Below are positions 9,034-32,371 of a stretch of DNA of 34,339 bases, in pieces (position 1 is the first letter of the stretch; every line of letters starts with the position of its first letter). This stretch comes from a virus (taxonomy: Duplodnaviria; Heunggongvirae; Uroviricota; Caudoviricetes), in IMG/VR virus record IMGVR_UViG_2648501437_000013, one strand, 5' to 3'. A model generated the notes under the pieces. The model did not search any database, had not been told where the DNA came from, and was given only the letters and a program-made list of their open reading frames with translations. A program made the translations under genes and the position numbers.

Positions 9034-10176
9034 TTACAGGTCTGCAAACTGGCTTAGAGAAGCCTTATCCACGGTAGAATCGATCTGACCTACCAGATAT
9101 GTGCTTTGCTCTGCCTCTTGTGGTGCAATTTGCAGTGTGTCGGTTAACAACCACTTGTTCATCCAGACCAGCGGATCAGTGGTAACTTCTGGAAATAAAG
9201 CCTTCAGGCCAAGACGATTCATAGCCAGATTGGTGCGGTATTTTACATAGGTTTTGAGAATATCCGCGTTTAAACCAATCATCGAACCGTCTTTGAAGAG
9301 ATAGTCTGCCCAGTTCATTTCTTGTTCGGCGACTGATTTCATGGTGTCGTAAATGACGTTTTCTTCATCAGCAGCAATCTCTTTCCACAATAAACCTTCT
9401 CGACCGGTACGCATGAAGCGGATCATGCGTTCAGTTCCTTCGCAATGCAGAGCTTCATCACGGGCAATAAAGCGCATAATTTTGGTGTTACCCTCAAGCA
9501 ACTTCCGTTCGCCAAAGGCAAACGTACATGCAAAACTTACATAGAAACGGATCGCCTCAAGCGCATTAATGGACACCAACGTGCGGAAAAGCTGACGATG
9601 CAAAGGGTATGGCTCCCAGCCATATTCATTTACGTACAGACGTTCAAACTCCTTCTCACCTAACGACTGGCGCTCGCATGTCATCCCATAAAGCCTGTCA
9701 TATTCAGCAGAGATACTGATCGCTCGGTTGATGATTTCTTCATCCGTAACAATACCGTCAAAAACAATGCTCGGATCGTCCACCATGCCACGAATAATGT
9801 GGGTGTAGCTACGGCTATGGATAGTCTCAGAGAAAGACCACGTTTCAACCCACGTTTCCAGTTCAGGAATAGAGATAAGCGGCAGCAGCGTTGCATTTGG
9901 GCTACGTCCCTGAACTGAATCGAGCAACGTTTGATAACGGAGATTACTCAGGAAAATGTGGCGTTCGTGGTCCCGCAGCTTCGTATTGAAGTCGATGCGA
10001 TCGCTCGAAATATCAACTTCTTCCGGCCGCCAGAAGAAAGACAATTGACGTTCAATCAACTTTTCAAAATCACGGTATTTTTGCTGATCGTAACGTGCCA
10101 CGTTGACAGATTGTCCGAGGAACATAGGCTCTTTGGTTGCATCATTAGCACCCAAACGGAACGTTGAATATGACAT
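9034..10176 (-). CDS. nrdB: Ribonucleotide reductase class Ia beta subunit
   Basis: Near-collinear similarity to E. coli NrdB from MSYSTF... to ...YLVGQIDS (di-iron and tyrosyl-radical regions); start set at ATG 10176 with AAGGAAAAACAC leader. Confidence 0.9.
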
Positions 10177-10281
10177 GTGTTTTTCCTTTTGCTTTTTGAT
10201 GTGTTTAAACAAGTTGTTATCTTATTTGTTTAAACAAGGCTTACAAATCAAAGAGAAGGTGGGGATACACCCCACCATATG

Positions 10282-12597
10282 TCAGATTTTGCAGGCTCCG
10301 TCGCACTCATCTTCTGGCTCGACGGCTACAGCTTGCGTCAGTGGATTCTGCGGTTCGTCGTCATCACGCTTTCCTGCCCCATCTCTGGTGTTGTGGTAGT
10401 AAAGCGTTTTAACTCCCATCTTGTAGGCGAGAAGCAAATCTGACAGTAGCGTCATCATTGGGACTTTATCGCCTTCAAAGCGAGAAGGGTCATAGTTGGT
10501 ATTGGCTGAAATAGCCTGGTCAAAGAACTTCTGGATGATCGCCACCTTTGTCAGATAGCCGCGGTTGTCCGGCATATCCCACAGGTATTCATACTGTTCC
10601 TTCAGTTTTTCAAACTCAGGCACGACCATCTTAACGATGCCGTCCTTAGAAGATTTCACCGACACCGGGCCACGAGGCGGTTCGATGCCGTTGGTGGAAT
10701 TAGTGATCTGGCTGGAAGTCTCGCATGGCATTTGTGCCGTCAGTGTGGAGTTGCGAAGGCCGTATTTTGCAATACGTTCACGCAGTTCTTCCCACGGCAT
10801 CTTTAACTCAAAGTTGGTTTCACCACTTTCGTCTAATGAAGAACGGTAATGGTCGATAGGCAACTGACCAATTGCGTATTTGGTCTGCTCAAACCAGTCA
10901 CACTCACCTTTAGCTTCAGCAAGTTGGCAGCTGGCATCGAGAAGGTAATACTGGATAGCTTCGAACGTTTCATGCACCAGTTTATTGCCAGCGGTATCAG
11001 AATAACGAAAGCCATTCTTTGCCAGGTAATAAGCAAAGTTGGTTACACCGATTCCCAGGCTACGACGAGCTTTGGCAGGCACTTCGGCAGCCTCCATCGG
11101 ATAGTCTTGATAATCCAGTAACGAATCCAGTGCAGCGACGGCATAGAACGCCACCTCTTTAAGAGACTCCAGTGAACGGATGGCTCCGAGGTTAAAAGCG
11201 GATAAAGTGCAAAGCGCGATCTCACCGTTCGGGTCGTCGGTAAATGTCAGTGGACTGGTGGGTAGGGTGATCTCCATACACAGGTTTGACTGGCGGACAG
11301 GTGCAAGAGCAGGAATGAAAGCGCCATGCTCGTTAATATGATCGACGTTCGCAATATAAATTCGGCCCGTGGACGCTCGTTCCTGCATCAGAGATGAGAA
11401 CAGCTCAATGGCAGGCACTGACTTCTTGCGAATTGAATCATCGGCTTCGTATTTATGGTACAGCTTTTCAAACAGATCCTGGTCTGTGAAGAAGGCTTCG
11501 TACATATCAGGCACATCATGCGGGCTGAACAGAGTGATGTTCTCGCTTCTGACGAGTCGACGGTACATCAGACGGTTACTCATGACACCGTAATCAAGAT
11601 GGCGAACGCGGTTTTCATCGATACCACGGTTATTTTTCACCACCAGCAGACTTTCAACTTCAAGATGCCAAATCGGGTAAAACGCTGTTGCTGCGCCACC
11701 ACGGACACCACCTTGCGAGCAAGATTTAACAGCCGTCTGGAAATGCTTCAGGAATGGAATAACTCCGGTATGGGTGGCTTCACCATTGCGGATCTCACTG
11801 CCCAGCGCACGGATACGGCCAAAACCAATACCAATTCCAGCACGACGTGAAACGTAGTCGATAATTGCGGCTGAAGCTGCGCTAATCCCTTTCAGACTAT
11901 CGCCAGACTCAATCAGCACACAACTGGAGAACTGACGGGTTGGAGTACGGACGCCGGCCATGATTGGTGTGGGCAGAGACAGTTTGAACGTACTTGTAAC
12001 GTCATAGAAACCTTTGACCATCTCCATACGTGTTTTGCCAGCGCAGTCGTCTTCCCAATTCTGGAACAGACACATGCCTACCAGCATATAGATATGTTGC
12101 GGCCCCTCATGAATCTCACCAGTAACACGGTTTTGAACGAGGTATTTGCTTTGCAATTGCACCGTAGCTGCATAGCCAAAAAGATCGTCACGTTTAGGCT
12201 TAATGTAATTGCCGAGTTCTTCGATCTCTTCAAACGAATAACGTGTCAGCAAATCCTTGTCATAAACGCCCTTGTTAACGTTCTTGACAATGTGTTGGTA
12301 GAAGTTCGGATAGTCGTAACGACCGAAGGCATCTTTGCGGATTTTAAAAATGTTCAGGCGGGCAGCCACCTGTGAGTAATTTGGTGCATCTGGTGAGATC
12401 AAATCAGCGGCAGATTTAACCAAAGCCTCATGCAACTGGCTGGTGGTAATCCCATCAAAAATGCTGGCCGCAGCTCCCATTGCTACAGCGGATGCGCTTA
12501 CACCACGAATGCCTTCTACGCCATACATTACGACGCGGTTGTATTTTTCTTCGGATAACGGCTCTGTTTGGCCGTTACGTTTTACGATGCTTATCAT
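10282..12597 (-). CDS. nrdA: Ribonucleotide reductase class Ia alpha subunit
   Basis: 771 aa, collinear with E. coli NrdA including SLPTPIMAGVRTPTRQFSSCVLIE, NLCMEITLPT and C-terminal CDGACKI; no intein-sized insertion. Confidence 0.9.
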   Translation of the reverse strand: MISIVKRNGQTEPLSEEKYNRVVMYGVEGIRGVSASAVAMGAAASIFDGITTSQLHEALVKSAADLISPDAPNYSQVAARLNIFKIRKDAFGRYDYPNFYQHIVKNVNKGVYDKDLLTRYSFEEIEELGNYIKPKRDDLFGYAATVQLQSKYLVQNRVTGEIHEGPQHIYMLVGMCLFQNWEDDCAGKTRMEMVKGFYDVTSTFKLSLPTPIMAGVRTPTRQFSSCVLIESGDSLKGISAASAAIIDYVSRRAGIGIGFGRIRALGSEIRNGEATHTGVIPFLKHFQTAVKSCSQGGVRGGAATAFYPIWHLEVESLLVVKNNRGIDENRVRHLDYGVMSNRLMYRRLVRSENITLFSPHDVPDMYEAFFTDQDLFEKLYHKYEADDSIRKKSVPAIELFSSLMQERASTGRIYIANVDHINEHGAFIPALAPVRQSNLCMEITLPTSPLTFTDDPNGEIALCTLSAFNLGAIRSLESLKEVAFYAVAALDSLLDYQDYPMEAAEVPAKARRSLGIGVTNFAYYLAKNGFRYSDTAGNKLVHETFEAIQYYLLDASCQLAEAKGECDWFEQTKYAIGQLPIDHYRSSLDESGETNFELKMPWEELRERIAKYGLRNSTLTAQMPCETSSQITNSTNGIEPPRGPVSVKSSKDGIVKMVVPEFEKLKEQYEYLWDMPDNRGYLTKVAIIQKFFDQAISANTNYDPSRFEGDKVPMMTLLSDLLLAYKMGVKTLYYHNTRDGAGKRDDDEPQNPLTQAVAVEPEDECDGACKI

Positions 12598-12614
12598 GTA
12601 TCACCAAATAAAGA

Positions 12615-12636
12615 GGGCCACTAAATATAGTGGCCC
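12615..12636 (-). terminator. Hairpin GGGCCACTA-aata-TAGTGGCCC followed by TCTTTATTT on the minus strand
   Basis: 9-bp stem between the RuvC-like stop and the nrdA ATG; possible attenuator in the nrdA leader. Confidence 0.5.
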
Positions 12637-12645
12637 ATGTTAATA

Positions 12646-12663
12646 GATAGGCACTTACCTATC
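12646..12663. promoter_or_regulatory. Palindrome GATAGGCACTTACCTATC upstream of nrdA
   Basis: Arms GATAGG/CCTATC; recurrent motif family. Confidence 0.45.
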
Positions 12664-12670
12664 AATGAGA

Positions 12671-13240
12671 TCAAATGAGAGACTTGAGAACATCGCGCAC
12701 CTGGCGGAACTGATCTGTTTGCATACCGGTATGGATGGCAGCCACCGCATCAGCCAAATGTTCGTTTTTGTTTACGAGAACATCCTGTCCAGATTGCTTA
12801 CGACGCAGCCACGGTGCTTTAGGGTGTTTTTTCGTAGCCCACTGGATAATCTCTTCTTTCGATGTTGTAAGTTTATTGCCGACAAAATGTTTAATTTCGT
12901 TTGGAGTAACCTGGATCAATGGCTTATCCACACACGCAAGTACACCGATGCAAATACCGTAAGACGTCTGCGAACGAGAGTTTTGGCTCCCAACCGGTAG
13001 CTCACAAAAAACCATATTTGCCTTATCAATGATTGGCTTCGCAACACGCCATATTTCACTGGCGCGGCGAAGATCGTCACTGTTCACACGAACTGTCTTT
13101 TTGTTATTCCCCGCTTTAGTCTCAACAAGAGTAAGGCCGTGAATCTCAAGTTCGTCCGTTTCAAGGTCTAAAGTGCCCACAGCAAGCCCAAAGTTGCTCA
13201 TTGAAGGATCAACACCAACTACGCTGATTTTTTTACTCAT
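12671..13240 (-). CDS. RuvC-like Holliday junction resolvase
   Basis: N-terminal VVGVDPS...FGLAV (catalytic Asp), CELPVGSQN (Glu) and C-terminal EHLADAVAAIH, matching the RuvC-fold acidic residue layout. Confidence 0.55.
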   Translation of the reverse strand: MSKKISVVGVDPSMSNFGLAVGTLDLETDELEIHGLTLVETKAGNNKKTVRVNSDDLRRASEIWRVAKPIIDKANMVFCELPVGSQNSRSQTSYGICIGVLACVDKPLIQVTPNEIKHFVGNKLTTSKEEIIQWATKKHPKAPWLRRKQSGQDVLVNKNEHLADAVAAIHTGMQTDQFRQVRDVLKSLI

Positions 13241-13249
13241 ATAGTCTCC

Positions 13250-16087: not shown

Positions 16088-16128
16088 CGTGATGGCAAAG
16101 TCTCGAAAGCTCCCATAACGACTTTGCC

Positions 16129-17214
16129 TCACACAGCCTCCGAACTCTCCGCTTCGGTGAGGATTTCCTGACACAAAATATCCAACTTGCTCAGATCAAA
16201 TCCGCCGTCAGTATCGTGGACAATCTTGCAATAAGCAGATACCGACTCTCCCAGGCTATCGATTTTGCTGGTTTCCGTTGTGCTTGCTGTCCCTTCCATC
16301 ATTGATGACTTACGGATGAAGTTGCACACAACACCTTTTGCACCCATTGTTTTGAGGATGTTCTGGTACTTAATGCCTTCTTCGTCGTTCTCGATTACGG
16401 CGCGGAAACGCACGTAGTTGCCGCGAATTTGGTCATCAGCAACATAATCTTCCAGGTTAATGAATTTAGGCGCACTGGTTTCGTAGTGACTGAAACTGCC
16501 GTCCGGGTTTACGATCATGTAACCAGCCAGAGATCCAACATCTCCCCAATTTTGATGGGTCAGTGCACCGACACTGATAACTCCAGGAATGACCTCTTTG
16601 TGGTTGTGGTAATGCCCACTAAGCACGAGACGAAAGCCGATATCCTTTAACTCCTGCGCATCGATACCGACGTCAGGCATTGTTGGAATGGCTTTGTTAA
16701 TGGATGTATGGATAACAACATCATGATTATCACCTTCTACGCTCTTACGTAATGCTTTCAGATCGCTGATAAGCTCTGCATGATTGTTACGCCAGCTAAT
16801 CAGGTGGACAGTCACATCACCAATTTTTATTGAGTGTGGGCGCTTGCCACATACGATTACCACGCCGATAGAACTCAGCGATGCTGCTGCGTTGGCGCTA
16901 TATACTGAATCGTTGGTTTCAAGATCGTGATTACCGGCCAGCATTACTACTGTCAGATCAAGCTCGTTGATAATCCACTTGTACGTTTCAGTTACGTAAT
17001 GCAAAACAGAAGGGGACACAGTTCCTCGGACGTGAAATGTATCACCGGCAACCAACATGTACTTACAACCGGCCTTCTTCATGGCGATGGCTGCTTCTTT
17101 CGTTGCTTCCAACTGTATTTCAAGTCTGGAGTTAAGCCCCTCAGCGTTCGTCGTGGAGAACGCATCCCATTTGTGGTAGTGGCAGTCAGAAATGACGCCG
17201 TATGGCAAAGTCAT
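16129..17214 (-). CDS. SbcD/Mre11-like nuclease (calcineurin-like phosphoesterase)
   Basis: Motifs ISDCHYH, AGDTFH, GNHD, GHYH; start moved from track TTG (17244) to ATG at ~17214 preceded by CCACAAAGGAAAAACAC. Confidence 0.8.
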   Translation of the reverse strand: MTLPYGVISDCHYHKWDAFSTTNAEGLNSRLEIQLEATKEAAIAMKKAGCKYMLVAGDTFHVRGTVSPSVLHYVTETYKWIINELDLTVVMLAGNHDLETNDSVYSANAAASLSSIGVVIVCGKRPHSIKIGDVTVHLISWRNNHAELISDLKALRKSVEGDNHDVVIHTSINKAIPTMPDVGIDAQELKDIGFRLVLSGHYHNHKEVIPGVISVGALTHQNWGDVGSLAGYMIVNPDGSFSHYETSAPKFINLEDYVADDQIRGNYVRFRAVIENDEEGIKYQNILKTMGAKGVVCNFIRKSSMMEGTASTTETSKIDSLGESVSAYCKIVHDTDGGFDLSKLDILCQEILTEAESSEAV

Positions 17215-17324
17215 GTGTTTTTCCTTTGTGGTTATTTGATACAAATCTTAAGCTTGCTCGAGAGGTGAGCAACCAAGACAGCACGGCACAGAAGAACATC
17301 AACAGGCATAGTATTACAAAATAA

Positions 17325-17344
17325 ATAGGTAAGTGAATACCTAC
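17325..17344. promoter_or_regulatory. Palindrome ATAGGTAAGTGAATACCTAC in the divergent AT-rich region upstream of sbcD
   Basis: Arms TAGGTA/TACCTA; same motif family as 2311..2330. Confidence 0.45.
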
Positions 17345-17466
17345 CAAAATTGTTGAATGGATTGCTTACAAGGCGGCTAGAGTTTCATTGAAGTGCTTAG
17401 ATGTATATGGTAGGCAAAAGTCTCATCGTTACATATGAATGAACTATCTCATGGGTCATGTATCAT

Positions 17467-18793: not shown

Positions 18794-18895
18794 GTATGCT
18801 ACCAGCGGTAATTGATAGTCTGTCAACGGTTCGCCGTATGCTGCCAACTGTTTTTGGTATGCTGCCAGCGGCAAATCAAGTATGCTGTCAGCGGT
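18794..18895 (+). repeat. Origin-proximal iteron array (about 4 copies of TATGCTGYCAGCGGT, two degenerate)
   Basis: Copies at 18794, 18837 (degenerate), 18858, 18881, directly upstream of the repA start. Confidence 0.75.
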
Positions 18896-18915
18896 TGAAT
18901 GACAAAGGTGTCCAC

Positions 18916-20010
18916 ATGTCCACAAAAAATAAAAAAGGTAAAAATAACAAAGAAGTAGAAGATAATCTCGACAACTTTGAAGAAGGTTCCCTTGAATTGT
19001 ACACAGGGGAACTTGTCCCTAATAGCAACAATACAGTCCAACCAATTGCGTTGATGCGGCTGGGGTTGTTCGTGCCCACGCTCAAGGGGACAAAATACAG
19101 CAAGCGTAACAAGCCAAATGAGATCGATGCTTCAAAGGAGCTTGTTCAGCTCGAAGTAGCCCGTTCTGAAGGTTATTCCGATATCAAGATAACCGGTCCT
19201 CGTCTCGACATGGATCATGATTTCAAAACGTGGGTGGGCGTTGTGCGTTCGCTGGCAGAATACGGCGAACCTAACGGTCGTGTCGAGTTAAGCATCACGA
19301 AATTTGCGAAGTTTTGTGGCTATCCATCGTCACAGATCCGCAAAACACTCCGCGACCGGCTTACAAACAGTCTTTTGAAGATCATGCGTACAACTCTGTC
19401 TTTTCAGAGAACGTATGAAGAAAAGAACGTCGACGGCTCTAACAAGATCTCGCTTCTGATGGTGCACCTCATCAATAGCGTGGACTACAACGAGCAGAAA
19501 GATACGGTGGTGTTCTATGCAGAACCGAAGCTGGCCGAACTATATCGCTTTGACCATAAAGTTCTTTTGCAGTTAAAGGTTATCAATAAGCTACCACGCA
19601 AAGAAACAGCACAGGCTCTGTACACCTTCATCGAAAGTCTTCCAACCAAGCCTGCGCCGGTATCGCTTGCTCGATTACGTGCGCGACTCAATTTGAGTAG
19701 CAGGAATGTCAGCTCGCAGAATCAGACTATACGTAACGGCTTAAAAGCTCTCCAAGATTTGGGCTATCTCGAATACAGCGAGATTAAGCGAGGGCGGTCG
19801 ATCTATATCCAGATTCACAGCCGCAATCCAAAACTCAAAGTCGCACCGCCAAAACCTGAAGACATCGAACCCAAAAAACCAGATGAGAAAGCTGGGGAAA
19901 TTGATGCCAAACAGAACATTATCAACAAGATAACCGAACTTTCGCAGAATTTGACGCCTGAAAATATCAAGATGATTGAGATCCTTTCCAATAGTCTCAA
20001 ACTGCTTTGA
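18916..20010 (+). CDS. repA: Replication initiator RepA (P1 RepA / RepFIB-type)
   Basis: Recalled similarity to P1 RepA (NSNNTVQPIALMRLGLFVP, DIKITGPRLDMDHDFKTW, YTFIESLP, HSRNPKLK); start moved to ATG 18916 (AAAGG RBS) because the track start reads through the iterons. Confidence 0.85.
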   Translation: MSTKNKKGKNNKEVEDNLDNFEEGSLELYTGELVPNSNNTVQPIALMRLGLFVPTLKGTKYSKRNKPNEIDASKELVQLEVARSEGYSDIKITGPRLDMDHDFKTWVGVVRSLAEYGEPNGRVELSITKFAKFCGYPSSQIRKTLRDRLTNSLLKIMRTTLSFQRTYEEKNVDGSNKISLLMVHLINSVDYNEQKDTVVFYAEPKLAELYRFDHKVLLQLKVINKLPRKETAQALYTFIESLPTKPAPVSLARLRARLNLSSRNVSSQNQTIRNGLKALQDLGYLEYSEIKRGRSIYIQIHSRNPKLKVAPPKPEDIEPKKPDEKAGEIDAKQNIINKITELSQNLTPENIKMIEILSNSLKLL

Positions 20011-20542
20011 TATGCTGTCAGCGGTGAAATGTATGCTATCAGCGGCTATTTTTCTGAAAAGTATGCTGTGAACGGTTAAAGATATGCTACCAGCGGTATA
20101 GTGAGATAAACGTATGCTGTGAGCGGTAAATCATCTATCACCACTCAATGCTCTGGCATACCTCCCCAGTGGTTACTAACCTCGAAGAGTGCATTCCATA
20201 TAGGTTTGCGCTCACTAACATTCTATTGCCGTTGCGCTGATTGCTTGTAGTGAAAGGCATTTATTGCCTGCTGCTCCCTGATAGAACGTATGCTGTCAGC
20301 GGTGTTTTATTGAGGAATTTTTGTTTGGATATGCTATCAGCGGTAATTAATGGTATATGTCAGACCTTCGTATGCTGCCAGCGGTAATTTTGTTCTGGTT
20401 ATACCCATACCGGTACACATTATTCATGCAATGTCTTAAGTATGCTGTCAGCGGTAAAAAATCGAGTAAAGTATGCTGTGAGCGGTGAGATAAACTCTCG
20501 ATATGCTATCAGCGGTAATTGATTGTGTATGCTGTCAGCGGT
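20011..20542 (+). repeat. Downstream iteron array, 12 copies of TATGCT(G/A)(T/C)(C/G)A(G/A)CGG(T/C) in two groups (5 + 7) separated by a ~160-bp spacer
   Basis: Copies at 20011, 20032, 20062, 20083, 20113, 20289, 20330, 20371, 20441, 20472, 20503, 20528, all in the same orientation; position matches a P1 incA-like copy-control locus. Confidence 0.8.
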
Positions 20543-20558
20543 GACGACTATGAAATAT

Positions 20559-21313: not shown

Positions 21314-21352
21314 GATAGGTAGATACTAACTTATATAAATTTTACTGTAAAC

Positions 21353-21628
21353 TCACTCAAAAGTGCTGATGCTTAAAATACGCTCAAGATGTGCGGCATC
21401 TTCATCACTGATTTGTTGAGTCTCTTCTACGTACCAACAGTTGCCGTTATGCCAACAAACACCATCATCATCAACCATCACTGAATCAGCGTCATGACCT
21501 GTATATTCAACGAGAATGCGCTGGATCAGCGCGTCAGTTTCTTCGTCGTTAAGGCCATCGGCTTTGACCATAAAAAGCGGAAACACGTCATAGACAGTGC
21601 TGGTAACGATTCGAACTAAAACTCTCAT
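21353..21628 (-). CDS. Hypothetical protein (91 aa)
   Basis: Intact ORF preceded by the conserved CCACAAAAGGAAAAACAC leader. Confidence 0.5.
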   Translation of the reverse strand: MRVLVRIVTSTVYDVFPLFMVKADGLNDEETDALIQRILVEYTGHDADSVMVDDDGVCWHNGNCWYVEETQQISDEDAAHLERILSISTFE

Positions 21629-21683
21629 GTGTTTTTCCTTTTGTGGTTAGTGTTTACTTATTTTGTTAGTTATGAATAGGCGA

Positions 21684-22109: not shown

Positions 22110-22159
22110 GTTTTCTTATCCTTTTAAACAAATTGTTTTCTTAATAAGATAATTGCGAT

Positions 22160-23034: not shown

Positions 23035-23235
23035 TTATTTCCCCTTTGCTTTGATTAATGAGTTGATAAACTTACGACCAGCAATAAGACCGATTACAGG
23101 AGCACCAAAACCAACGATAACTCCAAACATGACGGCTAAATCACTCTTGGTAGAAATCAGCGACGGAACCAGTAAACCGTAGATGAGAGCCACTGAAAGG
23201 CCTGTGGCTACTGCCAATAGATAGATTTTGATCAT
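23035..23235 (-). CDS. Small membrane protein (66 aa, two TM segments), first gene of the SPFH operon
   Basis: Hydrophobic sequence MIKIYLLAVATGLSVALIYGLLVP...VIVGFGAPVIGLIAG; conserved leader upstream. Confidence 0.5.
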   Translation of the reverse strand: MIKIYLLAVATGLSVALIYGLLVPSLISTKSDLAVMFGVIVGFGAPVIGLIAGRKFINSLIKAKGK

Positions 23236-23267
23236 GTGTTTTCCTATGTGGTTGTTATGCGAAAATA

Positions 23268-23283
23268 ATAAGTAAGTGCTTAT
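23268..23283. promoter_or_regulatory. Palindromic motif ATAAGTAAGTGCTTAT upstream of the SPFH operon
   Basis: Arms ATAAG/CTTAT; recurrent motif family. Confidence 0.4.
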
Positions 23284-23297
23284 ATATTTTCAAGAGA

Positions 23298-23327: not shown

Positions 23328-24401
23328 TTACTCTTCTACTGACTCGGTGGGGTTGTCTTTTGCTCTTCGGTCGTCGATTGCCTGCAAAGCCGCAATGATT
23401 TCAGCCAGTGGCTTCTCCCGATACATCTCGACGATCTGCGATTTGGTGTATTTCTTGTCACCAATTTCAACTCGCCCGCTGGCGTTCTTTGGCAGGTATC
23501 CTTCTTCCAGCATGTACTCGACGAGCGATTCGATAACGTCGAGGCCACGAGTAGGATCGAAGTAGAATTTCCAGGTGCATTTGCCATACGGTGGTGCAAC
23601 TTTGTTTTTGATGCATTCTGCGCCTACGTCCTGGCCGATCTTCTCTTTACCATCCTTCATCACCGATGCACCAAGACGGATACGTACAGAAGCGTAGAAC
23701 TTCGGTGAATCTCCACCTGGCGACGTAGTAGGGTCGCCAAACATTACACCGATTTTTGTGCGAACCTGATTCAAGAAGATGATGCAGGCGTTGTATTTGC
23801 GTGCCCACAAAGCCAGAGTAGGGAAGTTCGCACTCGTCGCACGAGCCAGTGCCGTATTGTCGTTCATGTTTAGCTGATCTTTGTCTTTGGCAGTGCCTTC
23901 AGCCATCTTTTCGAACTTCTCGGCTTTGGAGTTCGGAACCATAGACGCAAGAGAGTCAGCCACGATACAGATTGGTGCTGATTCGGGGATAAGCTCTTCA
24001 TCACGAACCAATTTAAGTATTGTGCCGATCAACTCTACAGAGTCTTCGAAGGTATCTGGCTGCTTGTATACCCACTGACCGTCATCCTCATCTGCGTTCA
24101 GGCCATTGGCGACAGCCAGGCCAACGTCAAAACTGTTTTCATGATCGAGGAATACCGCCAGACCATCTTGTTTTTGAGCGGAGATCATCGCTGCTGTTGC
24201 AAGGAACGTTTTCCCTGCACTTGGAGGACCGAATACTTCGACGATACGACCACATGGGAAGCCGCCATCGTAACGACCAGAAATAGCTTTGTTTAACGGT
24301 GGAAAGCCTGTATCAATCCAATGAGTTACTTTCTGAATTTCGTCGTTGCTACCGATTTTCTTTTTCAGAGCAAGTGCCAGTGCGGATTTTCCTTTTGCCA
24401 T
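23328..24401 (-). CDS. RecA-superfamily recombinase (UvsX/RecA-like)
   Basis: Walker A VEVFGPPSAGKTF, Walker B-like VFLDHENSFD; ~357 aa as for RecA/UvsX. Confidence 0.8.
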   Translation of the reverse strand: MAKGKSALALALKKKIGSNDEIQKVTHWIDTGFPPLNKAISGRYDGGFPCGRIVEVFGPPSAGKTFLATAAMISAQKQDGLAVFLDHENSFDVGLAVANGLNADEDDGQWVYKQPDTFEDSVELIGTILKLVRDEELIPESAPICIVADSLASMVPNSKAEKFEKMAEGTAKDKDQLNMNDNTALARATSANFPTLALWARKYNACIIFLNQVRTKIGVMFGDPTTSPGGDSPKFYASVRIRLGASVMKDGKEKIGQDVGAECIKNKVAPPYGKCTWKFYFDPTRGLDVIESLVEYMLEEGYLPKNASGRVEIGDKKYTKSQIVEMYREKPLAEIIAALQAIDDRRAKDNPTESVEE

Positions 24402-24403
24402 GA

Positions 24404-25614: not shown

Positions 25615-25634
25615 CGGTACATTCCTTCCAAAAA

Positions 25635-25660
25635 GTAAGGCGTCCGTAGACGCCTTACTG
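25635..25660 (-). terminator. Rho-independent terminator GTAAGGCGTC-cgta-GACGCCTTAC (T5 on minus strand)
   Basis: 10-bp stem; downstream of the SSB stop (25675). Confidence 0.7.
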
Positions 25661-25674
25661 GTCACGTAATGGGA

Positions 25675-26703
25675 TTACAGAGAGTCCAGCTCTCTCAGTA
25701 GGTCATCCAGACCTTCATCTTCCGTCGCAGATGCGGTTGCTACAGATGTCGCTGCGACTGCTTCAGACTCTTTGACTGATACGGCAACGGCAGCGGAACT
25801 TGCCTCTGGTTTAAATTCAGTTTCAACGGCACGGAGGATTTCTTCATCAACCAGACTGGTTGGTTCAGAAGCCGGTGTGTGCGCGGTTGCTACAGCCGTC
25901 GCTCCTTCTGTATGACCAGTGACAGAGCCAAATCCAGGTAGTGCCGCAGCCGATGTTTTCGCGGTTGAGGAAATTGCTGGTGCAGATGCTGCGGCAGTTG
26001 GTGCAGCGATGCCAATCAGACGACCCATAGTGCGAACTGTCGACAGAAGACGAGTTTCATCAGCCTGATTTGCGTATGCGATCAGATCATGCTGGGTGTT
26101 CCAGAATTTATCTTCGATATCGCCTTTGTAGACTTTACGCTTAGGCGAGACGTCATATTTGGTATCGCGACCAGAGCCAGTACGTTTAATCAGGAATGCG
26201 TAGCCTTCCTCTTTGCTCAGTGGATTGCCGATATCATCAGCGATGTCTTCGGTGATTGCTTTGCAGATATCATCGAATACAGTAGACGGCAGCTCGATTA
26301 ACTGGCATTTCTCAGCATCTGCGAAATCCTCACGAGCAGAAAGAATGCCGTTGACCAGGTAGCGAGGAGTGGCACGCATTTGACCGATGCGTTCTTCCAT
26401 TGCTTTGTTACCCTTGTGACGAGCGCGACCTTCCATCACCATTTCGCATAGCTGACAAGCGCGACCGTGAGTATGTTGCTCACAAATATAAGCGTTGGTT
26501 GCTTCTTTACCTTCCTCGTTCTGATACTTAACGTAGTGCATACCGAAAGTCTGGAAGAACTTACCGTTTGGGTCGTCTTTATTCGGGAAGATGCGGATAT
26601 AGTTGACGCCGTCTTTTAAGCGAGTCAGATCAACGTTGTTACCACGTTTGGCGGCAATGTCTTCACGAGTTTTGTTAAGCAAATCAAGTAATGTCTTAGA
26701 CAT
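25675..26703 (-). CDS. Single-stranded DNA-binding protein, T4 gp32-like
   Basis: Cys/His cluster CEQHTHGRACQLCEM, Ala/Ser/Thr-rich linker, acidic C-terminal tail EDEGLDDLLRELDSL. Confidence 0.55.
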   Translation of the reverse strand: MSKTLLDLLNKTREDIAAKRGNNVDLTRLKDGVNYIRIFPNKDDPNGKFFQTFGMHYVKYQNEEGKEATNAYICEQHTHGRACQLCEMVMEGRARHKGNKAMEERIGQMRATPRYLVNGILSAREDFADAEKCQLIELPSTVFDDICKAITEDIADDIGNPLSKEEGYAFLIKRTGSGRDTKYDVSPKRKVYKGDIEDKFWNTQHDLIAYANQADETRLLSTVRTMGRLIGIAAPTAAASAPAISSTAKTSAAALPGFGSVTGHTEGATAVATAHTPASEPTSLVDEEILRAVETEFKPEASSAAVAVSVKESEAVAATSVATASATEDEGLDDLLRELDSL

Positions 26704-26786
26704 GTGTTTCTCCTTGTTGTGATTTGGCCGATGGCGCTATGCGCGTTGGGCTTTCGTTCATTCGTGGCTCTTTCGAGCTGTTAAAT

Positions 26787-26815
26787 GATAGATCAGTGCT
26801 TACTTATTATCTATC
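26787..26815. promoter_or_regulatory. Palindrome GATAGAT-cagtgcttacttatt-ATCTATC upstream of the SSB gene
   Basis: 7-bp outer arms; inner part matches the recurrent ATAAGTAAG core. Confidence 0.4.
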
Positions 26816-26820
26816 AAAAA

Positions 26821-27252
26821 TCAACGGGGAGTGATAAAGCGTTCAGAGCCTAATCGCTCTAATTCAACGATGGCCATCTTTGACGCCTGAACGATCATGT
26901 CTCGGCGATGCGAAAAGGCGGCGACAGCATGTTTGTATATGTCTGCGATGTGCCGTGCTTCATCCAACTTCTGCCGTTTAGACAGATACTGTGGGTTTGT
27001 TTTAACCTTAGCGTCCAGTACAGATTCGTTGAACTTAATGCCGTTCATACTCAAGTTCTTACGCTCTGTGTCGTATAGCTTTGCTTCAACAGCTTCAAGG
27101 TTAAGTTTTGCTTCTGCGACACTTCTTTCTGCATGGGCGAGTTTTGAGCCATATTCCATCAACAGGCGGGGTTGTCTACGCCAGACTTCTTCCAGATTGT
27201 CTCGGTCAAACTCGAGATCAGACATTATTTTCTCGTAAATATCGGCGATCAT
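26821..27252 (-). CDS. Hypothetical protein; possible UvsY-like recombination mediator
   Basis: Start set at ATG ~27252 (AAGGAAA RBS) rather than track 27276; weak, memory-based resemblance to T4 UvsY plus neighbourhood with UvsX-like and gp32-like genes. Confidence 0.4.
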   Translation of the reverse strand: MIADIYEKIMSDLEFDRDNLEEVWRRQPRLLMEYGSKLAHAERSVAEAKLNLEAVEAKLYDTERKNLSMNGIKFNESVLDAKVKTNPQYLSKRQKLDEARHIADIYKHAVAAFSHRRDMIVQASKMAIVELERLGSERFITPR

Positions 27253-27286
27253 GCACATTTCCTTATCACTTATCATTTTGTATTGA

Positions 27287-27295
27287 TTATATCAT
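27287..27295 (-). promoter_or_regulatory. Extended -10 promoter element TGATATAAT (minus strand)
   Basis: Perfect TATAAT with TG two nt upstream, ~35 nt upstream of the ATG at 27252. Confidence 0.5.
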
Positions 27296-27325
27296 TGTAA
27301 TGATGAGGCAATGAGCTTGAAGATA

Positions 27326-27371
27326 GGGGGGGGAGGGGATAAGGGAAAACATGGCCTTTATGGCCATGTTT
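27326..27371. other. G8-A-G4-ATAA-G3 tract followed by 10-bp hairpin AAACATGGCC-tttat-GGCCATGTTT, just downstream of the dnaE stop
   Basis: Read directly; on the minus-strand transcript the hairpin is followed by a C-rich run, not a U-tract. Confidence 0.5.
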
Positions 27372-27377
27372 ATTGGA

Positions 27378-30300
27378 TCACGTCTTAATAGTTTCTGCTA
27401 CGTCGGCTAATATCGCTTCTAGTCGTTCTCCCTCTTCAGGTCTGAAGTAAAGAATGTTGGGGTTAAACCCGTAAAAGACAGTAACGTCAAGGTCTGGAAG
27501 ATACTCCTTCCTGCCGACCAAATCGGATGGCTTGTTTTTGTTGTTAAACAATGCCGTTGCCCGGCTGCCACACGTCAGCACATAGGTCGGACGCACCAGA
27601 TTGATCTCTTCACGTATAAAGTCGGTGAACTGGCCGATCTCGTCTTTGGTGTAGTCTTTTTCTTTGTCTTTAACCTTCTTGCAAACGCCTGTGACATAGA
27701 GATCGCCCATGCGTAAATCTCCAGCCGTCAATAGCTTGGCCTTAAAGTCGTCGTATCCGTTCTCCATAAAGTAACCGGTTCGAGCATCATTGCCGTTCGC
27801 ATTGTCCAGAATGATCATGATTTTCGGCTTAATACCAATGCTGGGGCGGATTAGTTCATCACCTAAGCCCATTTCAGCCGCCATCCGCGTCATGAGTACG
27901 TTAATTTCAGCCGAACGTTTGGGGTTCATCTCAAACGGACGTGAGGCTTTAACTGCGTCTATGACAAGATTTCCCATCAATTCAGCCTGGTCGCGTAGGC
28001 GCTCTGGAGCAGTTGCTGGCAGACTACCTGGCTCGATGGATGCAAACGCCCCTACTTTTTGCAGCGATTCGCGCACTCGACTATTACAGGCACGTTTCTC
28101 GACAGCTTCTTCGAATTGCGCCAGTGACTCGAATTTGCCGCCAACTTTTTCTCGCGCTCTCATGATGGCTTGGCAGCCATTCTCAGAACACCCCTTCACA
28201 GCAGAGAATGGCGCATACAGCACCTGGCTGCCATCTTCAAGCGTGCGGATCTCGATTCGGTTAGATGACACGTTAACGTCTGGTGGCAATACGCGAATAC
28301 CATAGGTCAGCGCATCTTTAACCAGCCCTTGGTGTTTATCTTCGCCAAGAATAGTGAGAGCAGCAGCGAAAAACTCTGCGGGATAATGAGTTTTCAACCA
28401 CATAGATTGATAACTGATTAAGGAGTAAGCAACAGAGTGTGATTTGTTGAACTGGTAGGCACCATTTTTTTCGAATGCGGTCCAGATCTCCTTCGCTTTC
28501 ATCTCTGATAGCCCTGGATGTGACGCTGTAACGCGTACTGCGTTTATAGGTAGTTTTGCGCCGTGCTCAAGTGCCTCTTCGACAGTTTTCAGAGTTCCGT
28601 CTTCGCATTTAAAATGTTCCGCACGGTGAATGCGCTGTGTAGTGCCATCTTCCAGCTCAACGTCTATCCAGCCAGCTTGAGCCTGAACGATGAACTTCTC
28701 GCCCATGCTCTTCATTTTTTCCATGTCCTTTTTGCCGATCGCTTTACGAACACCGTCAGCTTCAGCCATTGTGAAGCCAGCAAGCAATCGAGTCGCGTTC
28801 ATCGTCTGTTCCTGATAGAGAATCACGCCATTTGTTTCTGCGGTAAGTTCATCAAGAACGGGGTGTAATGATTCCGGCGTCATAAAGCCTTTGGCTACAG
28901 AAACATAGTCATCCAACATGCCTGACTGAATTGGCCCTGGCCGGAAGAGCGCAGTCGTAGCGACGACCGTTTTAAAGCTCATTGGCTCAATTCCACCACC
29001 TAAATCTTTAAGCAGCTTGCGCATTGGGCCTGATTCAAGCTGGAAAACACCTTGAGTATACCCAGCAGCAAAACCATCCAGCACCTTGCGATCTTCAAGA
29101 GAAATGGCATCAAGATTGATATCTTCACCTGTGTTCTCTTTTATGTAGCGTTTTGCACTATCGAGCAAATCGAGAGTTGCCAGGCCAAGCACGTCCAGCT
29201 TAATTAGGCCCATAGCCTCGCAGTAACGCTTGTCAAATGCGATACAACGCGCGTCACCACGGCGCTCAACCGGTGTACGTTCTGTCAGAAGAACACCTGC
29301 TACGATCATCCCTGCCGCATGTCTACCAAAGCCACGCATAAGGCTTTGTAACTTGCAGGCTGCATTGAATGCATCAGGATATTTTGTTGCGTATTTGTCG
29401 AGACTTGCCAGTTGTTCGCGCAGCTCTTCCAATGGAAGGCTATCATCCTCGACGTTCTTCAGTTCTTTTGATACCGCCATATCTGCGGACTCCACACCAT
29501 AAATACGAGCGGTATCACGTAGTGCAGAGGCTGCGCCCAGGTAGGTGAAGTTCGGAATGCCTGCAACGTAATCTTCGCCGTAGCGTTCATTCAGATACTC
29601 GATCACTTCATGGCGACGTGCCTGGCTGAAGTCCAAATCCGCATCCGGCAAGTCGAGACGCTCAGGGTTGATGAAACGTTCAAACAGAAGACCGTGACGG
29701 ATTGGGTCGACGTTGGTTATGCCTATGCACCATGCCACCAGAGATCCAGCGGAGGAACCACGACCAGGCCCGACAGGAATGCCAGTTTCACGGCTGTGAT
29801 TCATCAGATCGCGTACCATCAGGAAGTAACCACAAAATCCCAGGCGAGTCAGCGTGTCCATTTCGTACTTTAGCCGCTCAACATAAACCCTGTTCTCAGA
29901 AGCAGGTGGTGTGTAGCCAAACTCTTTTGTGGTAAGACGTTTACGCAGCCCTGCAACAGCCAGTTTCATAAGCGTTGCAGGCTCGTCGTCTGCCATCTTT
30001 GGCAGTGCTGGCGGCAATTCATGCCAGCGCCATGTGCAGGCATCGATAATGGTATCCTGCGTTGTTGAGGCCATTGCAGCTGTTACCGGCACATCCATGC
30101 GAACGGAGAAGGCTTTAAGCGCCTCAAGGAGATGGCGGCGACCATTGACGGCGTTATCTCGCTGGTGGGGGATACGCAGACGATGCGGCTGGTCGATTTT
30201 GATGTTGTTCGTAACCATGTGCGCAATGTCTTTAATGTCTGCATCGTCGATCGATTCGTAATAAGCGGGATAGAACGCCACTGGCTCTATTTTCAATGCG

Positions 30301-30896
30301 CTGGCGACTTTCATCGCCCGGACGTTAATCTGGTCGTAGAATGGGGTAGGGTGCGGATAAACCACACTATAGAAGTTGTCTTTTCCACCCGCTGTAATCA
30401 GTGTGCTTATAATTTTTGCAAAATCGTTGCGTTGGAACACGCTACCGATGTCGGAAGTAAGCAGGATGATGTTGCCTTTGGCATATGTAGAAACCAACTG
30501 TTCGAGCGAGAGACGCGGTACAAAGTAGAACTGTTCTCGTGTGTTGGCCGCCGTCATTAGTTCGCAGATGTCGCGATATCCTTTCTCATTTTTAATTAGA
30601 GCGGTAAACGAGTAGTTACGTCCTCGCTCTAATGATTCCATACATCCCTTAGATTCTTTAGCAAGTTTAGCCCGGTGCTCGTATGTGGGATCATCAACGA
30701 TATTTAGTTTCACACCACAAATAACCGCCATGTCGCCACCAGCGGCACGTTGTAGTGGAATAACACTCGCAATATTCATGCTATCTGCTGAAATTACAGC
30801 GGTGTAGCCAGCTTCTCTGGCAATCTTCACCGCGTTTTCTGCTTTTAAAGCCGACTCCCCAAGTGAGAAGTCAGTTCGAACCATCAGTGCCTTCAT
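27378..30896 (-). CDS. dnaE: DNA polymerase III alpha subunit (DnaE-type replicative polymerase, N-terminal PHP domain)
   Basis: 1172 aa; PolC/DnaE palm motif GYFLMVRDLMNHSRETGIPVGPGRGSSAGSLVAWCIGITNVDP; PHP-like N-terminus; length close to E. coli DnaE, no intein-sized insertion. Confidence 0.9.
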   Translation of the reverse strand: MKALMVRTDFSLGESALKAENAVKIAREAGYTAVISADSMNIASVIPLQRAAGGDMAVICGVKLNIVDDPTYEHRAKLAKESKGCMESLERGRNYSFTALIKNEKGYRDICELMTAANTREQFYFVPRLSLEQLVSTYAKGNIILLTSDIGSVFQRNDFAKIISTLITAGGKDNFYSVVYPHPTPFYDQINVRAMKVASALKIEPVAFYPAYYESIDDADIKDIAHMVTNNIKIDQPHRLRIPHQRDNAVNGRRHLLEALKAFSVRMDVPVTAAMASTTQDTIIDACTWRWHELPPALPKMADDEPATLMKLAVAGLRKRLTTKEFGYTPPASENRVYVERLKYEMDTLTRLGFCGYFLMVRDLMNHSRETGIPVGPGRGSSAGSLVAWCIGITNVDPIRHGLLFERFINPERLDLPDADLDFSQARRHEVIEYLNERYGEDYVAGIPNFTYLGAASALRDTARIYGVESADMAVSKELKNVEDDSLPLEELREQLASLDKYATKYPDAFNAACKLQSLMRGFGRHAAGMIVAGVLLTERTPVERRGDARCIAFDKRYCEAMGLIKLDVLGLATLDLLDSAKRYIKENTGEDINLDAISLEDRKVLDGFAAGYTQGVFQLESGPMRKLLKDLGGGIEPMSFKTVVATTALFRPGPIQSGMLDDYVSVAKGFMTPESLHPVLDELTAETNGVILYQEQTMNATRLLAGFTMAEADGVRKAIGKKDMEKMKSMGEKFIVQAQAGWIDVELEDGTTQRIHRAEHFKCEDGTLKTVEEALEHGAKLPINAVRVTASHPGLSEMKAKEIWTAFEKNGAYQFNKSHSVAYSLISYQSMWLKTHYPAEFFAAALTILGEDKHQGLVKDALTYGIRVLPPDVNVSSNRIEIRTLEDGSQVLYAPFSAVKGCSENGCQAIMRAREKVGGKFESLAQFEEAVEKRACNSRVRESLQKVGAFASIEPGSLPATAPERLRDQAELMGNLVIDAVKASRPFEMNPKRSAEINVLMTRMAAEMGLGDELIRPSIGIKPKIMIILDNANGNDARTGYFMENGYDDFKAKLLTAGDLRMGDLYVTGVCKKVKDKEKDYTKDEIGQFTDFIREEINLVRPTYVLTCGSRATALFNNKNKPSDLVGRKEYLPDLDVTVFYGFNPNILYFRPEEGERLEAILADVAETIKT

Positions 30897-31076
30897 GTGT
30901 TTTTACCTTTCTGGTTTTTTTGATTTTGTCATTTGGGAAGCCTACGAACTTCCCATGCATCGAAATCGCAACTTCTTTTGCTGATTGGTGACAATCAGGC
31001 TTGTCTGGACACACCAGACAAGCCTTACCAGTTTCAGAAGCAGCGATAAGAGAGCCGAAACATCCTTTACGCACGA

Positions 31077-32312
31077 TCAACCAAATATTTTTTGAACAAC
31101 TTCACGAGCCGCTTGTGCAGAAGCTGAAGGGAGTTTGTTAATGAAAGAACGCTCAATACCTGTCACAAAGTCGCCTCGCATCATTCCAATCTTGGCCGAC
31201 AACAAAAGTTCACGAGGGCCAATTGGCTGACTGATAAGGTGTTCTTCGTATCCATCGCGAACGATACCGGCAAACTTAACCATCTTTTCTGCGTATTCAC
31301 CCACGATACCGGCATTTATCAACATGTTGATCTCTGCCTCTTTGCTCATGTATTTCACATTCGAAACGATGCCAAAACGCGAAAAGTTCGCGGCGTTCTG
31401 GATGTTTGTACCCTGGTACAAGCCGGTTTCATCACCAGATCCGTTCGTGTTGCCAGTGCCAATGAAAGCAAACCGTTCATGCGGAGTAATGCGACGCCAT
31501 TCTGGAGTCGCCTCTTTGATGACCAACGCTTCACCTTCCAGCACTGGCTGATACACGCCAAGAATCTGTGGAAACGCAAAGTCGTATTCATCCGCGAGGT
31601 AAACCCAGCCATGCTTCATTGCGAGCGCAAGCAAGCCAGGCTCGAAATACGTAGAGCCATCACGCGCCAGAATTTGCCCCGTAACATGTGCCTCTTCCAT
31701 TGATGCTGTATGTTGGGCACGGATCAACGGACGATTGAGCAAAGCACATAGCTGTGTAGGCAATGACGATTTGCCTGTTCCTGCATGACCCCACAAATAG
31801 CCAGGTATGCCAAGTTCAAGCATCATGAAAATATCTTTGATCAGTTCGAAGTCGCCATATACGTAGCCCTTCTTCACTTCTGGAACGAACTCTGGATACG
31901 GCGTATTGACGTTGACGCTAACCATGAGCGGCGTCCCACGTTTTGTTCCGAGTTCTTCCACCGTTACGTTTAGCAGTTCGTGAGCTGCGACCAGATCTGT
32001 CTTGTACTCAACTGTGCCTGTGTAGCCAGGGCTACTGGTCAAGCCAGAAGATTTGGCCATTTCGCTTTTTTGCTCGGCACGTTTAGCTTGAATTGCATCA
32101 AGTGCCTTTTTCGATAGCGTTGGCTCATCTGGAAACTGCGTTGTGTACATTTTCAGTACGGTGTCAGGATCGGCATCTTTTACTGACTCAGGAATGCCCT
32201 CGCAATTACCATTGGCTACATGGGACTTAAAATAGTGAAATGATTTGCCGCACCACTTGCAAACAAGGTAATCAGAATGATTTTTTTCATTTTGCAGTGC
32301 AGTAGTCGTCAT
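31077..32312 (-). CDS. MoxR/CbbQ-class AAA+ ATPase (CobS-like) with N-terminal Cys-rich zinc-finger-like segment
   Basis: Walker A GHAGTGKSS, Walker B-like WVYLADEYD; N-terminal CKWCG...H...C; directly upstream of a vWA protein. Confidence 0.7.
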   Translation of the reverse strand: MTTTALQNEKNHSDYLVCKWCGKSFHYFKSHVANGNCEGIPESVKDADPDTVLKMYTTQFPDEPTLSKKALDAIQAKRAEQKSEMAKSSGLTSSPGYTGTVEYKTDLVAAHELLNVTVEELGTKRGTPLMVSVNVNTPYPEFVPEVKKGYVYGDFELIKDIFMMLELGIPGYLWGHAGTGKSSLPTQLCALLNRPLIRAQHTASMEEAHVTGQILARDGSTYFEPGLLALAMKHGWVYLADEYDFAFPQILGVYQPVLEGEALVIKEATPEWRRITPHERFAFIGTGNTNGSGDETGLYQGTNIQNAANFSRFGIVSNVKYMSKEAEINMLINAGIVGEYAEKMVKFAGIVRDGYEEHLISQPIGPRELLLSAKIGMMRGDFVTGIERSFINKLPSASAQAAREVVQKIFG

Positions 32313-32371
32313 GCGTTTTTCCTTTGTTCTCTAATGAGCGTTCAACTTCTTATATAAATATACCATTAACT

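Follow-up and report, generated by a model that had tools for sequence, protein, structure and literature searches.

The start-associated sequences (SAS) of cluster K mycobacteriophages occur in 11–19 copies per genome, lie 3–7 nt from mostly ATG start codons and are found in the non-structural half of the genome only (Pope et al. 2011, PMC3203893). Their flanks are unable to pair with 16S rRNA and inverted repeats are often located just upstream (ESAS) (PMC3203893). The function of these sequences was unexplained in 2011 (PMC3203893) and still so in 2025 (PMC12699233). Here we analyze a 20-nt leader that directly precedes start codons in 34,339 nt of viral DNA (Caudoviricetes, IMG/VR record IMGVR_UViG_2648501437_000013), a stretch of 34 kb that we refer to as the window. 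Seven minus-strand genes of the window begin with (CC)ACAAAGGAAAAACAC-ATG: nrdB, sbcD, dnaE, the genes of a T4 gp32-like single-stranded DNA-binding protein (SSB) and of a CobS-like ATPase, and two small open reading frames (ORFs). This leader is a real, non-random feature. Its strict ATG register, its single orientation and a conservation that stops abruptly at the start codon make it likely that it is an mRNA-level element acting in translation initiation.

By analogy, the cluster K SAS are the closest counterpart of the leader, although the latter is no sequence member of that family. Both are short asymmetric repeats with about 10–20 copies per genome in a single orientation near ATG starts, both are confined to non-structural genes, and both combine a Shine-Dalgarno (SD) core with conserved flanks beyond 16S rRNA pairing. 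Different gene families are marked in different relatives. About half of the SAS copies have inverted repeats directly upstream (ESAS), to which the two types of palindromes upstream of leaders may correspond, although these vary in spacing and also occur without a leader. However, the sequences are unrelated (GGGATAGGAGCCC for SAS versus ACAAAGGAAAAACAC) and belong to another host phylum and phage lineage. Moreover, the leader abuts the ATG without a spacer, its best-conserved part lies between SD and ATG, and a candidate RNA-binding regulator can be named. The leader is an independent, sequence-unrelated example of a start-associated element in mobile elements of E. coli, Salmonella and Klebsiella and is directly testable, since reporter assays, crosslinking and immunoprecipitation (CLIP) and ribosome profiling are routine in these hosts.

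The nearest functional model would be the RegA regulon of phage T4, in which early mRNAs of replication and nucleotide metabolism share an A-rich region over spacer and AUG. Similarly, the leader genes include nrdB, dnaE, helicase, primase, SSB and sbcD, the motif extends up to the ATG, and the phage-plasmids discussed here carry T4-like gp32, UvsY-like and UvsW-like genes. In contrast to T4, however, no RegA homolog (PF01818) was found among ~100 non-structural ORFs, and RegA sites are A/U-rich and poorly conserved whereas the leader is A/C-rich and nearly identical between genes.

Leader copies in the window and in complete genomes

The window is 95.7–98% identical to the Escherichia phages PhiR41_1, CMS-2020a and Cyrano and about 80% identical to Salmonella phage SSU5 and Klebsiella relatives. 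Judged by these identities, it is the replication/recombination arm of an SSU5-like phage-plasmid. The initial annotation placed the leader at seven minus-strand starts, and at all of them it abuts the ATG directly (Table 1). A search with CACAAAGGAAAAACACATG allowing up to 3 mismatches returned 5 sites in the window compared to 0.00 expected from shuffled sequences, and a search for repeat families recovered the leader family independently (D6/D7). With a 20-nt ATG-anchored weight matrix, which was built partly from the same seven sites, the starts of the window are distributed bimodally: these seven reach 24–31.5 bits and all others at most 4.8 bits. Three starts that had been proposed as looser versions fall outside by score (1520 with −13 bits, 22109 with 4.8 and 27252 with −0.6). 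The PhiR41_1 ortholog of the gene at 27252 does have a true copy, AAAAAGGAAAGCAC-ATG. Pfam agrees with the gene identities given in the initial annotation, including the SbcD-type phosphoesterase and the AAA_5 ATPase.

The complete genome of PhiR41_1 (108 kb, 134 annotated genes) contains 14 sites far above the shuffle background, all exactly at annotated ATG starts on the gene strand; shuffled sequence yields 1–6 matrix hits at a low cut-off of 8 bits. No antisense hit was obtained with both strands scanned, and the virion/lysis block at 45–73 kb has zero copies. Named leader genes of PhiR41_1 are nrdB, sbcD, dnaE and those of the gp32-like SSB, the CobS-like ATPase, a DnaB-like helicase (named after the annotation of its SSU5 ortholog) and a primase, joined by a UvsY recombination mediator (Cyrano annotation) and six early genes that are small or unknown. 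At orthologous and other genes of SSU5 there are about ten copies, and 21 are present among ORFs of at least 67 aa in a divergent K. oxytoca plasmid (SbcD 71% identical). The high-scoring copies of these three complete genomes all coincide exactly with an ATG start and have the orientation of the gene, with none antisense. Overall, the leader marks about one gene in ten, namely early non-structural genes of DNA replication, recombination/repair and nucleotide metabolism. With 14 of 134 PhiR41_1 genes it defines a subset and is not shared by all genes, as a general ribosome-binding site (RBS) would be. Independent of the weight matrix, CAC occupies positions −3 to −1 of 15 of the 134 genes compared to 1.7 expected (p=2e-10).

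The exact 18-mer occurs at 67 IMG/VR loci, and SSU5-like IMG/VR loci carry 2–5 motif copies per ~12 kb. In a Providencia relative with an SbcD of 56% identity, the leader is absent from the whole 103 kb, and it is likewise absent from the 41 kb scanned in Acinetobacter relatives. No description of it was found in the searchable literature on SSU5, pHCM2 and pMT1.

The motif also predicts start codons. In SSU5, a copy at 35837 leads to an ATG that lies 68 nt before the annotated start of the primase gene (35905). The ORF from this ATG comprises 23 codons only, and the mismatch suggests a frameshift or a sequencing or annotation problem. A weaker copy in PhiR41_1 (80012–80031, 13.7 bits) has its ATG at 80029, where no start is annotated.

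Table 1. Positions of leaders and of the two palindromes. Coordinates refer to the window unless PhiR41_1 is given.
Feature	Sequence	Position	Strand	Gene or context	Score (bits)	Pfam
Leader	AGCAAAAGGAAAAACAC-ATG	10174..10193	-	nrdB (CDS 9034-10176)	30.5	Ribonuc_red_sm
Leader	CCACAAAGGAAAAACAC-ATG	17212..17231	-	sbcD-like phosphoesterase (CDS 16129-17214)	30.9	Metallophos
Leader	CACAAAAGGAAAAACAC-ATG	21626..21645	-	91-aa ORF (21353-21628)	31.5	
Leader	ACCACATAGGAAAACAC-ATG	23233..23252	-	66-aa membrane-protein ORF (23035-23235)	25.1	
Leader	ACAACAAGGAGAAACAC-ATG	26701..26720	-	T4 gp32-like SSB (CDS 25675-26703)	27.6	gp32 (PF08804), E=1.7e-66
Leader	CAGAAAGGTAAAAACAC-ATG	30894..30913	-	dnaE (CDS 27378-30896)	24.2	DNA_pol3_alpha
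Leader	GAACAAAGGAAAAACGC-ATG	32310..32329	-	CobS-like AAA_5 ATPase (CDS 31077-32312)	26.3	AAA_5
Type-1 palindrome	TAGGTAAGTGAATACCTA	17326..17343	.	111 nt upstream of sbcD start		
Type-1 palindrome, exact copies		97-114, 2312-2329, 17326-17343				
Type-1 palindrome, near-copies		12644-12661, 21316-21333, 23268-23286, 26788-26806				
Type-2 palindrome	AAACAAATTGTTT	22126..22138	.	16 nt upstream of 22109 start		
Type-2 palindrome, near-copy		10207-10219		before nrdB leader		
Type-2 palindrome, PhiR41_1 (L001/L002)		15899, 16628, 30177, 30228, 32939, 45701, 73104, 76038, 102328				

Anatomy of the initiation region and turnover among relatives

We compared 39 distinct copies collected in five genomes. 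Each position of the SD region, where the SD slips by one base among copies, has an information content of about 1 bit, and the peak of 1.2–2.0 bits is reached not in the SD but at −7 to −1 (A A A R C A C). In 98% of the copies, +4 is A or T. The leader consists of an A/C-rich, G/U-poor 5′ part (−20 to −12), a moderate AAGGA SD, an A-run and a near-invariant CAC abutting the AUG, with no G or U outside the SD. Complete relatives support the earlier claim of conservation beyond an SD: information is highest at −7 to −1 and in the A/C-rich stretch from −20 to −12, and conservation is not confined to the AGGA core.

Leader genes always follow an intergenic gap of 43–254 nt, while the gap of other genes is often shorter or missing (p=0.03), and they always start with ATG, compared to 105 ATG, 14 GTG and 1 TTG among the others. 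The median folding energy predicted for −35 to +35 is −6.9 kcal/mol for leader genes and −10.8 kcal/mol for other genes (p=3e-4), the mean unpaired probability from −18 to +6 has medians of 0.64 and 0.49 (p=4e-5), and predicted anti-SD pairing has medians of −5.6 and −6.95 kcal/mol (p=0.003). Leader regions are accordingly predicted to pair more weakly with the anti-SD, to fold less and to be more accessible than those of other genes. In the E. coli, SSU5 and K. oxytoca lineages, the primase copy (CCACAAAAGAAAAACAC) has no GG but retains its two flanks. Because of this copy and the weaker anti-SD pairing, the leader is not simply a strong SD. Its core AGG-AAA-AAC corresponds to an (A-R-N)3 tract overlapping the RBS. 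At least three consecutive A-R-N triplets were found in 12 of 14 leaders compared to 13% of other genes (Fisher p=5e-8), an enrichment that is partly a consequence of the composition of the motif itself.

Orthologous leaders diverge in their 5′ half and keep GGA, the A-run, CAC and ATG. The nrdB leader reads AAAAGCAAAAGGAAAAACAC in the window, ACATTCAGAGGGAAACAC in SSU5 and AATAACAAAGGAAAACAC in K. oxytoca. In alignments of orthologous regions, −6 to −1 is invariant or nearly so even where −20 to −7 varies. The sbcD leader is conserved at 20 of 20 positions among 13 distinct orthologous sequences and the dnaE leader is identical in SSU5 and an Enterobacter plasmid. On the other hand, the K. 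oxytoca orthologs of the window genes 13240, 5218 and 3291 have the motif where the window has ordinary AAGGAG-type sites and are, from this comparison, genes that acquired it. For 13240, homology reaches the upstream stop codon and the difference is confined to an inter-cistronic segment of 15–20 nt. Lineages also differ in flavor, with GGAAA(A/G)CAC as the usual form in K. oxytoca and GGAAAAACAC in the E. coli lineage. When the window is compared with seven relatives, mosaic breakpoints are located at gene boundaries and show no preference for leaders. Those right at starts (3996, 4790, 22109, 27252, 33909) belong to non-leader genes, and those nearest to leader genes lie 13–129 nt upstream of the start.

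A candidate translational operator and its rivals

The initial annotation suggested shared translational control, for example by a repressor. A start-codon-linked role at the mRNA level is well supported, given the strict ATG register, the single orientation, the restriction to one class of genes and the low predicted structure; the repressor part is plausible, with a FljA-family protein as candidate. Tentatively, we favor the leader as a shared translational operator, to be recognized by an RNA-binding protein in trans, over an RBS that acts purely in cis, because it is absent from the late genes that need most protein, because its SD is of below-average strength and can be dispensed with in the primase copy, because the most conserved bases are not required by known rules of initiation efficiency, and because it is lineage-specific with a distribution matching that of an RNA-binding-type regulator. 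Under such a mechanism, the leader would keep the initiation region unfolded and display an A-rich (A-R-N)n tract over the RBS. This tract could act as common operator through which ~14–21 genes would be throttled together post-transcriptionally, as RegA does with T4 early genes. The element's own FljA-family protein, modelled as tandem Hfq-like Sm domains, would be the binder of first choice, with host Hfq and the gp32-like SSB as fallbacks. The latter, which had been put forward earlier as a possible binder, is supported by no more than the presence of its gene. The (A-R-N)3 core over the RBS fits an Sm-fold binder, be it plasmid-encoded or host Hfq, and resembles the sites of the Hfq distal face. 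However, Hfq sites are degenerate and not locked to start codons, and the CAC and the upstream CCACA of the leader do not follow the A-R-N rule. If true, a shared translational switch would bear on the choice between plasmid maintenance and lytic growth.

A Pfam scan of 37 window ORFs and 62 further PhiR41_1 ORFs covered ~100 non-structural ORFs. CsrA, Hfq, ProQ, KH, S1 and cold-shock domains, like RegA, were not found among them, and the FljA family is the sole Pfam family in this set with a documented RNA-regulatory role. The FljA-like protein of PhiR41_1 (172 aa, 37192–37710), which is encoded outside the window, gives a full-length match to PF03614 (E=1.3e-68), a family described as FljA, 'repressor of phase-1 flagellin', and shares 36–41% identity with genuine Salmonella FljA over 98% of its length. 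FljA-type proteins act post-transcriptionally and stop the translation of fliC mRNA (PMC2652032, citing Bonifield & Hughes 2003 and Yamamoto & Kutsukake 2006; bioRxiv 10.1101/2025.10.27.684867). Modelling predicts two tandem Hfq-like Sm domains for the FljA-like protein; a sequence search against solved structures returned zero hits. If the tandem Hfq-like fold were confirmed, it would explain the action on mRNA of FljA, which has long been labelled a transcriptional repressor. A UvsW-like DEAD-box helicase gene adjoins the FljA-like gene outside the window.

The FljA-like gene was found in PhiR41_1, SSU5, pMT1, Cyrano and K. oxytoca and in 832 PLSDB plasmids. Its records (Klebsiella 342, Escherichia 229, Enterobacter 92, Yersinia 62, Salmonella 60) compare with those of SbcD homologs (352, 255, 93, 63 and 49, respectively), and the full-length gene is nearly a core gene of SSU5-like plasmids from enterobacteria. 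These plasmids number roughly 1000 with 11 from Aeromonas included; 10 Klebsiella and 26 Escherichia plasmids have sbcD and lack a FljA-like hit. Neither Klebsiella pneumoniae nor Y. pestis is motile. Since the gene is kept in plasmids of these hosts, host flagellin is an unlikely target of the FljA-like protein; unlike FljA, which acts on one host mRNA, it would act on ~14–21 phage-plasmid mRNAs. The gene and the leader share their lineage distribution: the E. coli, Salmonella, Yersinia and K. oxytoca lineages have the two of them, the Providencia relative, which has the type-1 operator-like palindrome, has neither, and in the case of Acinetobacter no plasmid record matches the FljA-like gene and the scanned 41 kb lack the leader. 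The context of a chromosomal FljA-like homolog, P0072, is an SSU5-like fragment that is degraded and contains neither a flagellin gene nor leaders, and it was uninformative. The most specific version of the operator is a RegA-like regulon in which the plasmid-encoded tandem-Sm FljA-family protein would bind AAACAC-AUG and gate the translation of lytic replication genes, Salmonella FljA being a specialised member of a wider family of Sm-fold repressors of mobile elements. We consider this version unlikely as it stands.

Several observations weigh against an operator bound by a FljA-like protein. Action in RNA, binding by any protein and the FljA-like identity of the binder are all points that we infer. 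The shared distribution of leader and FljA-like gene amounts to one or two independent phylogenetic contrasts, and the Providencia plasmid also differs in GC content (38% vs 46%). The FljA-like gene's own start has no leader. The likeness of the fliC 5′ untranslated region (UTR) to the leader is loose: the fliC leader reads CAAUAUAGGAUAACGAAUC-AUG, the UTR contains CAACGACTTG, and its end AUAUAGGAUAACGAAUC-AUG has AUAGGA(U/A)AAC alone in common with the leader ACAUAGGAAAACAC-AUG. The type-2 palindrome AAACAANTTGTTT could be an alternative FljA-like target, since it has the same phyletic pattern as the leader and the FljA-like gene and is placed 5′ of many RBSs. Across orthologs, the whole 20-mer is just slightly better conserved than adjacent intergenic DNA. 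In ~25 unrelated viral contigs, the 18-mer is present as a single copy and serves as an ordinary RBS. Finally, the lacZ leader CACACAGGAAACAGCT-ATG, an ordinary good RBS of E. coli, has a similar architecture.

The latter two points favor a purely cis-acting standard RBS, unstructured, A/C-rich and S1-friendly with a moderate SD, which would ensure reliable translation of the first gene of early transcripts. It would be kept by selection for initiation efficiency and spread by duplication or short-patch conversion of promoter-leader cassettes, without a dedicated regulator. We regard this explanation as possible but doubtful. It agrees with the low predicted structure and high accessibility of leader regions, with the lack of G and U outside the SD and with the intergenic gaps preceding all copies, which make translational coupling impossible; in addition, the regulator is a candidate only. 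The likeness to lacZ extends to C/A-rich translational enhancers, which provide an unstructured C/A-rich context around an AGGAAA-type SD; these are, however, features of single genes, whereas the leader recurs before a defined regulon and is gained and lost as a unit. As further points against a standard RBS, the leader is missing from the most highly expressed late genes and has a weaker SD than other genes, and the primase copy has even lost its SD in three lineages while keeping the flanks. Known rules of initiation efficiency do not predict the near-invariant CAC, and the leader is absent from Providencia relatives, whose ribosomes we assume to be equivalent. An element acting in DNA, such as part of a promoter, an initial transcribed sequence or a transcription-factor site overlapping the RBS, appears improbable. 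Leader genes do lie just downstream of operator-bearing promoter-like sites, the transcript predicted for 23235 starts at the 5′ edge of the leader, and two other repeated palindromes share these intergenic regions. Still, the ATG register is exact although the distance to predicted promoters varies from ~23 to >100 nt, the asymmetric motif has one orientation and stops exactly at the start codon, and leaders also follow internal terminators, e.g. at nrdB.

A recombination linker, i.e. a module boundary aiding gene shuffling, or a functionless relic of one duplicated leader would explain why orthologs gain or lose the motif through a swap of the inter-cistronic 15–20 nt alone and why copies within a genome are more alike than orthologs (the two lineage forms given above). 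Both are rather improbable, as breakpoints do not prefer leaders and the retention of the motif, with AAACAC invariant, over more than 30% protein divergence argues for selection. Least probable of all is a target of a base-pairing small RNA (sRNA), either a phage antisense RNA or a G/U-rich host sRNA such as GcvB, or of host CsrA. C/A-rich RBS sequences are classical GcvB targets and ACA..GGA is loosely CsrA-like. However, an RNAduplex scan of the 108-kb genome revealed only the leaders' own opposite strands above shuffle level (best non-self duplex −17.0 kcal/mol compared to −17 to −20 in shuffles), and Rfam 15 has 0 matches in the window at the gathering threshold. CsrA sites are normally paired and typically placed in hairpin loops, whereas 13 of 14 leaders have zero or one GGA, mostly one, within −60 to +20, in a region predicted to be unstructured. 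A DnaA box was dropped because CCACA matches merely 6–7 of 9 positions by eye, and a MazF ACA site is missing from part of the copies, 18% of which have G at −4.

Palindromes, promoter-like sites and neighboring genes

The type-1 palindrome TARGTA-N6-TACYTA (typically TAGGTAAGTGNTTACCTA) recurs in intergenic regions (repeat families D8/D10). Exact copies number 9 in PhiR41_1 (0 in shuffles), 11 in SSU5, 7 in K. oxytoca and 5 in the Providencia relative (0.1 expected). Upstream of 23235 and 26703, type-1 copies occupy the spacers of the best sigma70-like promoters. The best of the window, TTGAAA-17-TATTAT at 23293–23265, is located just upstream of the 23235 leader, and the predicted transcript would therefore begin near that leader. 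The promoter-like site of the SSB gene (26813–26785) likewise has the operator-like palindrome within its spacer, and an operator-like half-palindrome, AATAAGTAAACACTAACC, adjoins the leader of the 91-aa ORF. We read the type-1 palindromes as putative repressor operators of the promoters driving leader genes, and the repressor is probably that of lysogeny.

Exact copies of the type-2 palindrome number 9 in PhiR41_1, 11 in SSU5, 14 in K. oxytoca and 0 in Providencia. The nine PhiR41_1 copies are all intergenic, 12–65 nt upstream of starts and often just 5′ of the SD or leader; in relatives, the palindrome is often found immediately 5′ of the leader. Most leaders have a type-1 or type-2 element 0–130 nt upstream at variable spacing, and both elements also occur without a leader. 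As most leaders have such an element, the arrangement is consistent with early transcripts under repressor control that have a leader gene in first position. In a Cyrano lysogen, no leader gene that can be placed on its annotation is among the transcripts at least 5-fold above background (PMC9928086). Ciprofloxacin raises the induction of Cyrano in LF82 39-fold (PMC9928086).

The nrdB leader is located 3′ of a terminator-like hairpin (10276–10258) and of the type-2 near-copy. Another terminator-like hairpin (GGGCCACTATATTTAGTGGCCC plus a T-run, 12615–12665) separates the nrdA start (12597) from a promoter-like site at 12665–12637. Its conservation extends to SSU5, Enterobacter, K. pneumoniae and K. 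oxytoca, and it may be an attenuator or another leader structure of nrdA.

Nearly all genes of the window are on the minus strand. Pfam families comprise RNase H, Dam, an epsilon-like exonuclease, DHFR, thymidylate synthase, NrdA, NrdB, SbcC, SbcD, RepA, an SPFH protein, RecA, a 5′-3′ exonuclease, the T4 gp32-like SSB, DnaE and CobS-like and CobT-like proteins. The repA gene (Rep3 family) is on the plus strand at 18796–20010, and a total of 14 iterons (GTATGCTGTCAGCGGT-like) lie on its two sides (18794–18896 and 20010–20543); this region is the plasmid replication origin. SSU5-like phage-plasmids are frequent in clinical Enterobacteriaceae and carry resistance genes (PMC9600943).

A T4-like recombination/replication set at 25675–27252 and in relatives comprises the gp32-like SSB, a UvsY-like protein (Cyrano annotation; 26821–27252) and RecA. 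RecA of the window (23328–24401) has 357 aa compared to 780 aa in PhiR41_1 (98798–101137) and Cyrano (CYRAN_55). The alignment breaks at 24210–24212, where the relatives have an insertion of ~1.27 kb, which may represent an intein or a homing endonuclease. The homology shared with PhiR41_1 and Cyrano ends at 33909 (region 33905–34300), the CobT-like gene encodes 499 aa compared to 702 aa in PhiR41_1, and an ORF upstream of it (33920–34300) has an integrase-core (rve) domain; for these reasons, the 5′ end of the CobT-like gene appears to be cut off by an insertion sequence (IS) element. In an Enterobacter relative, dnaE is split by an HNH endonuclease gene.

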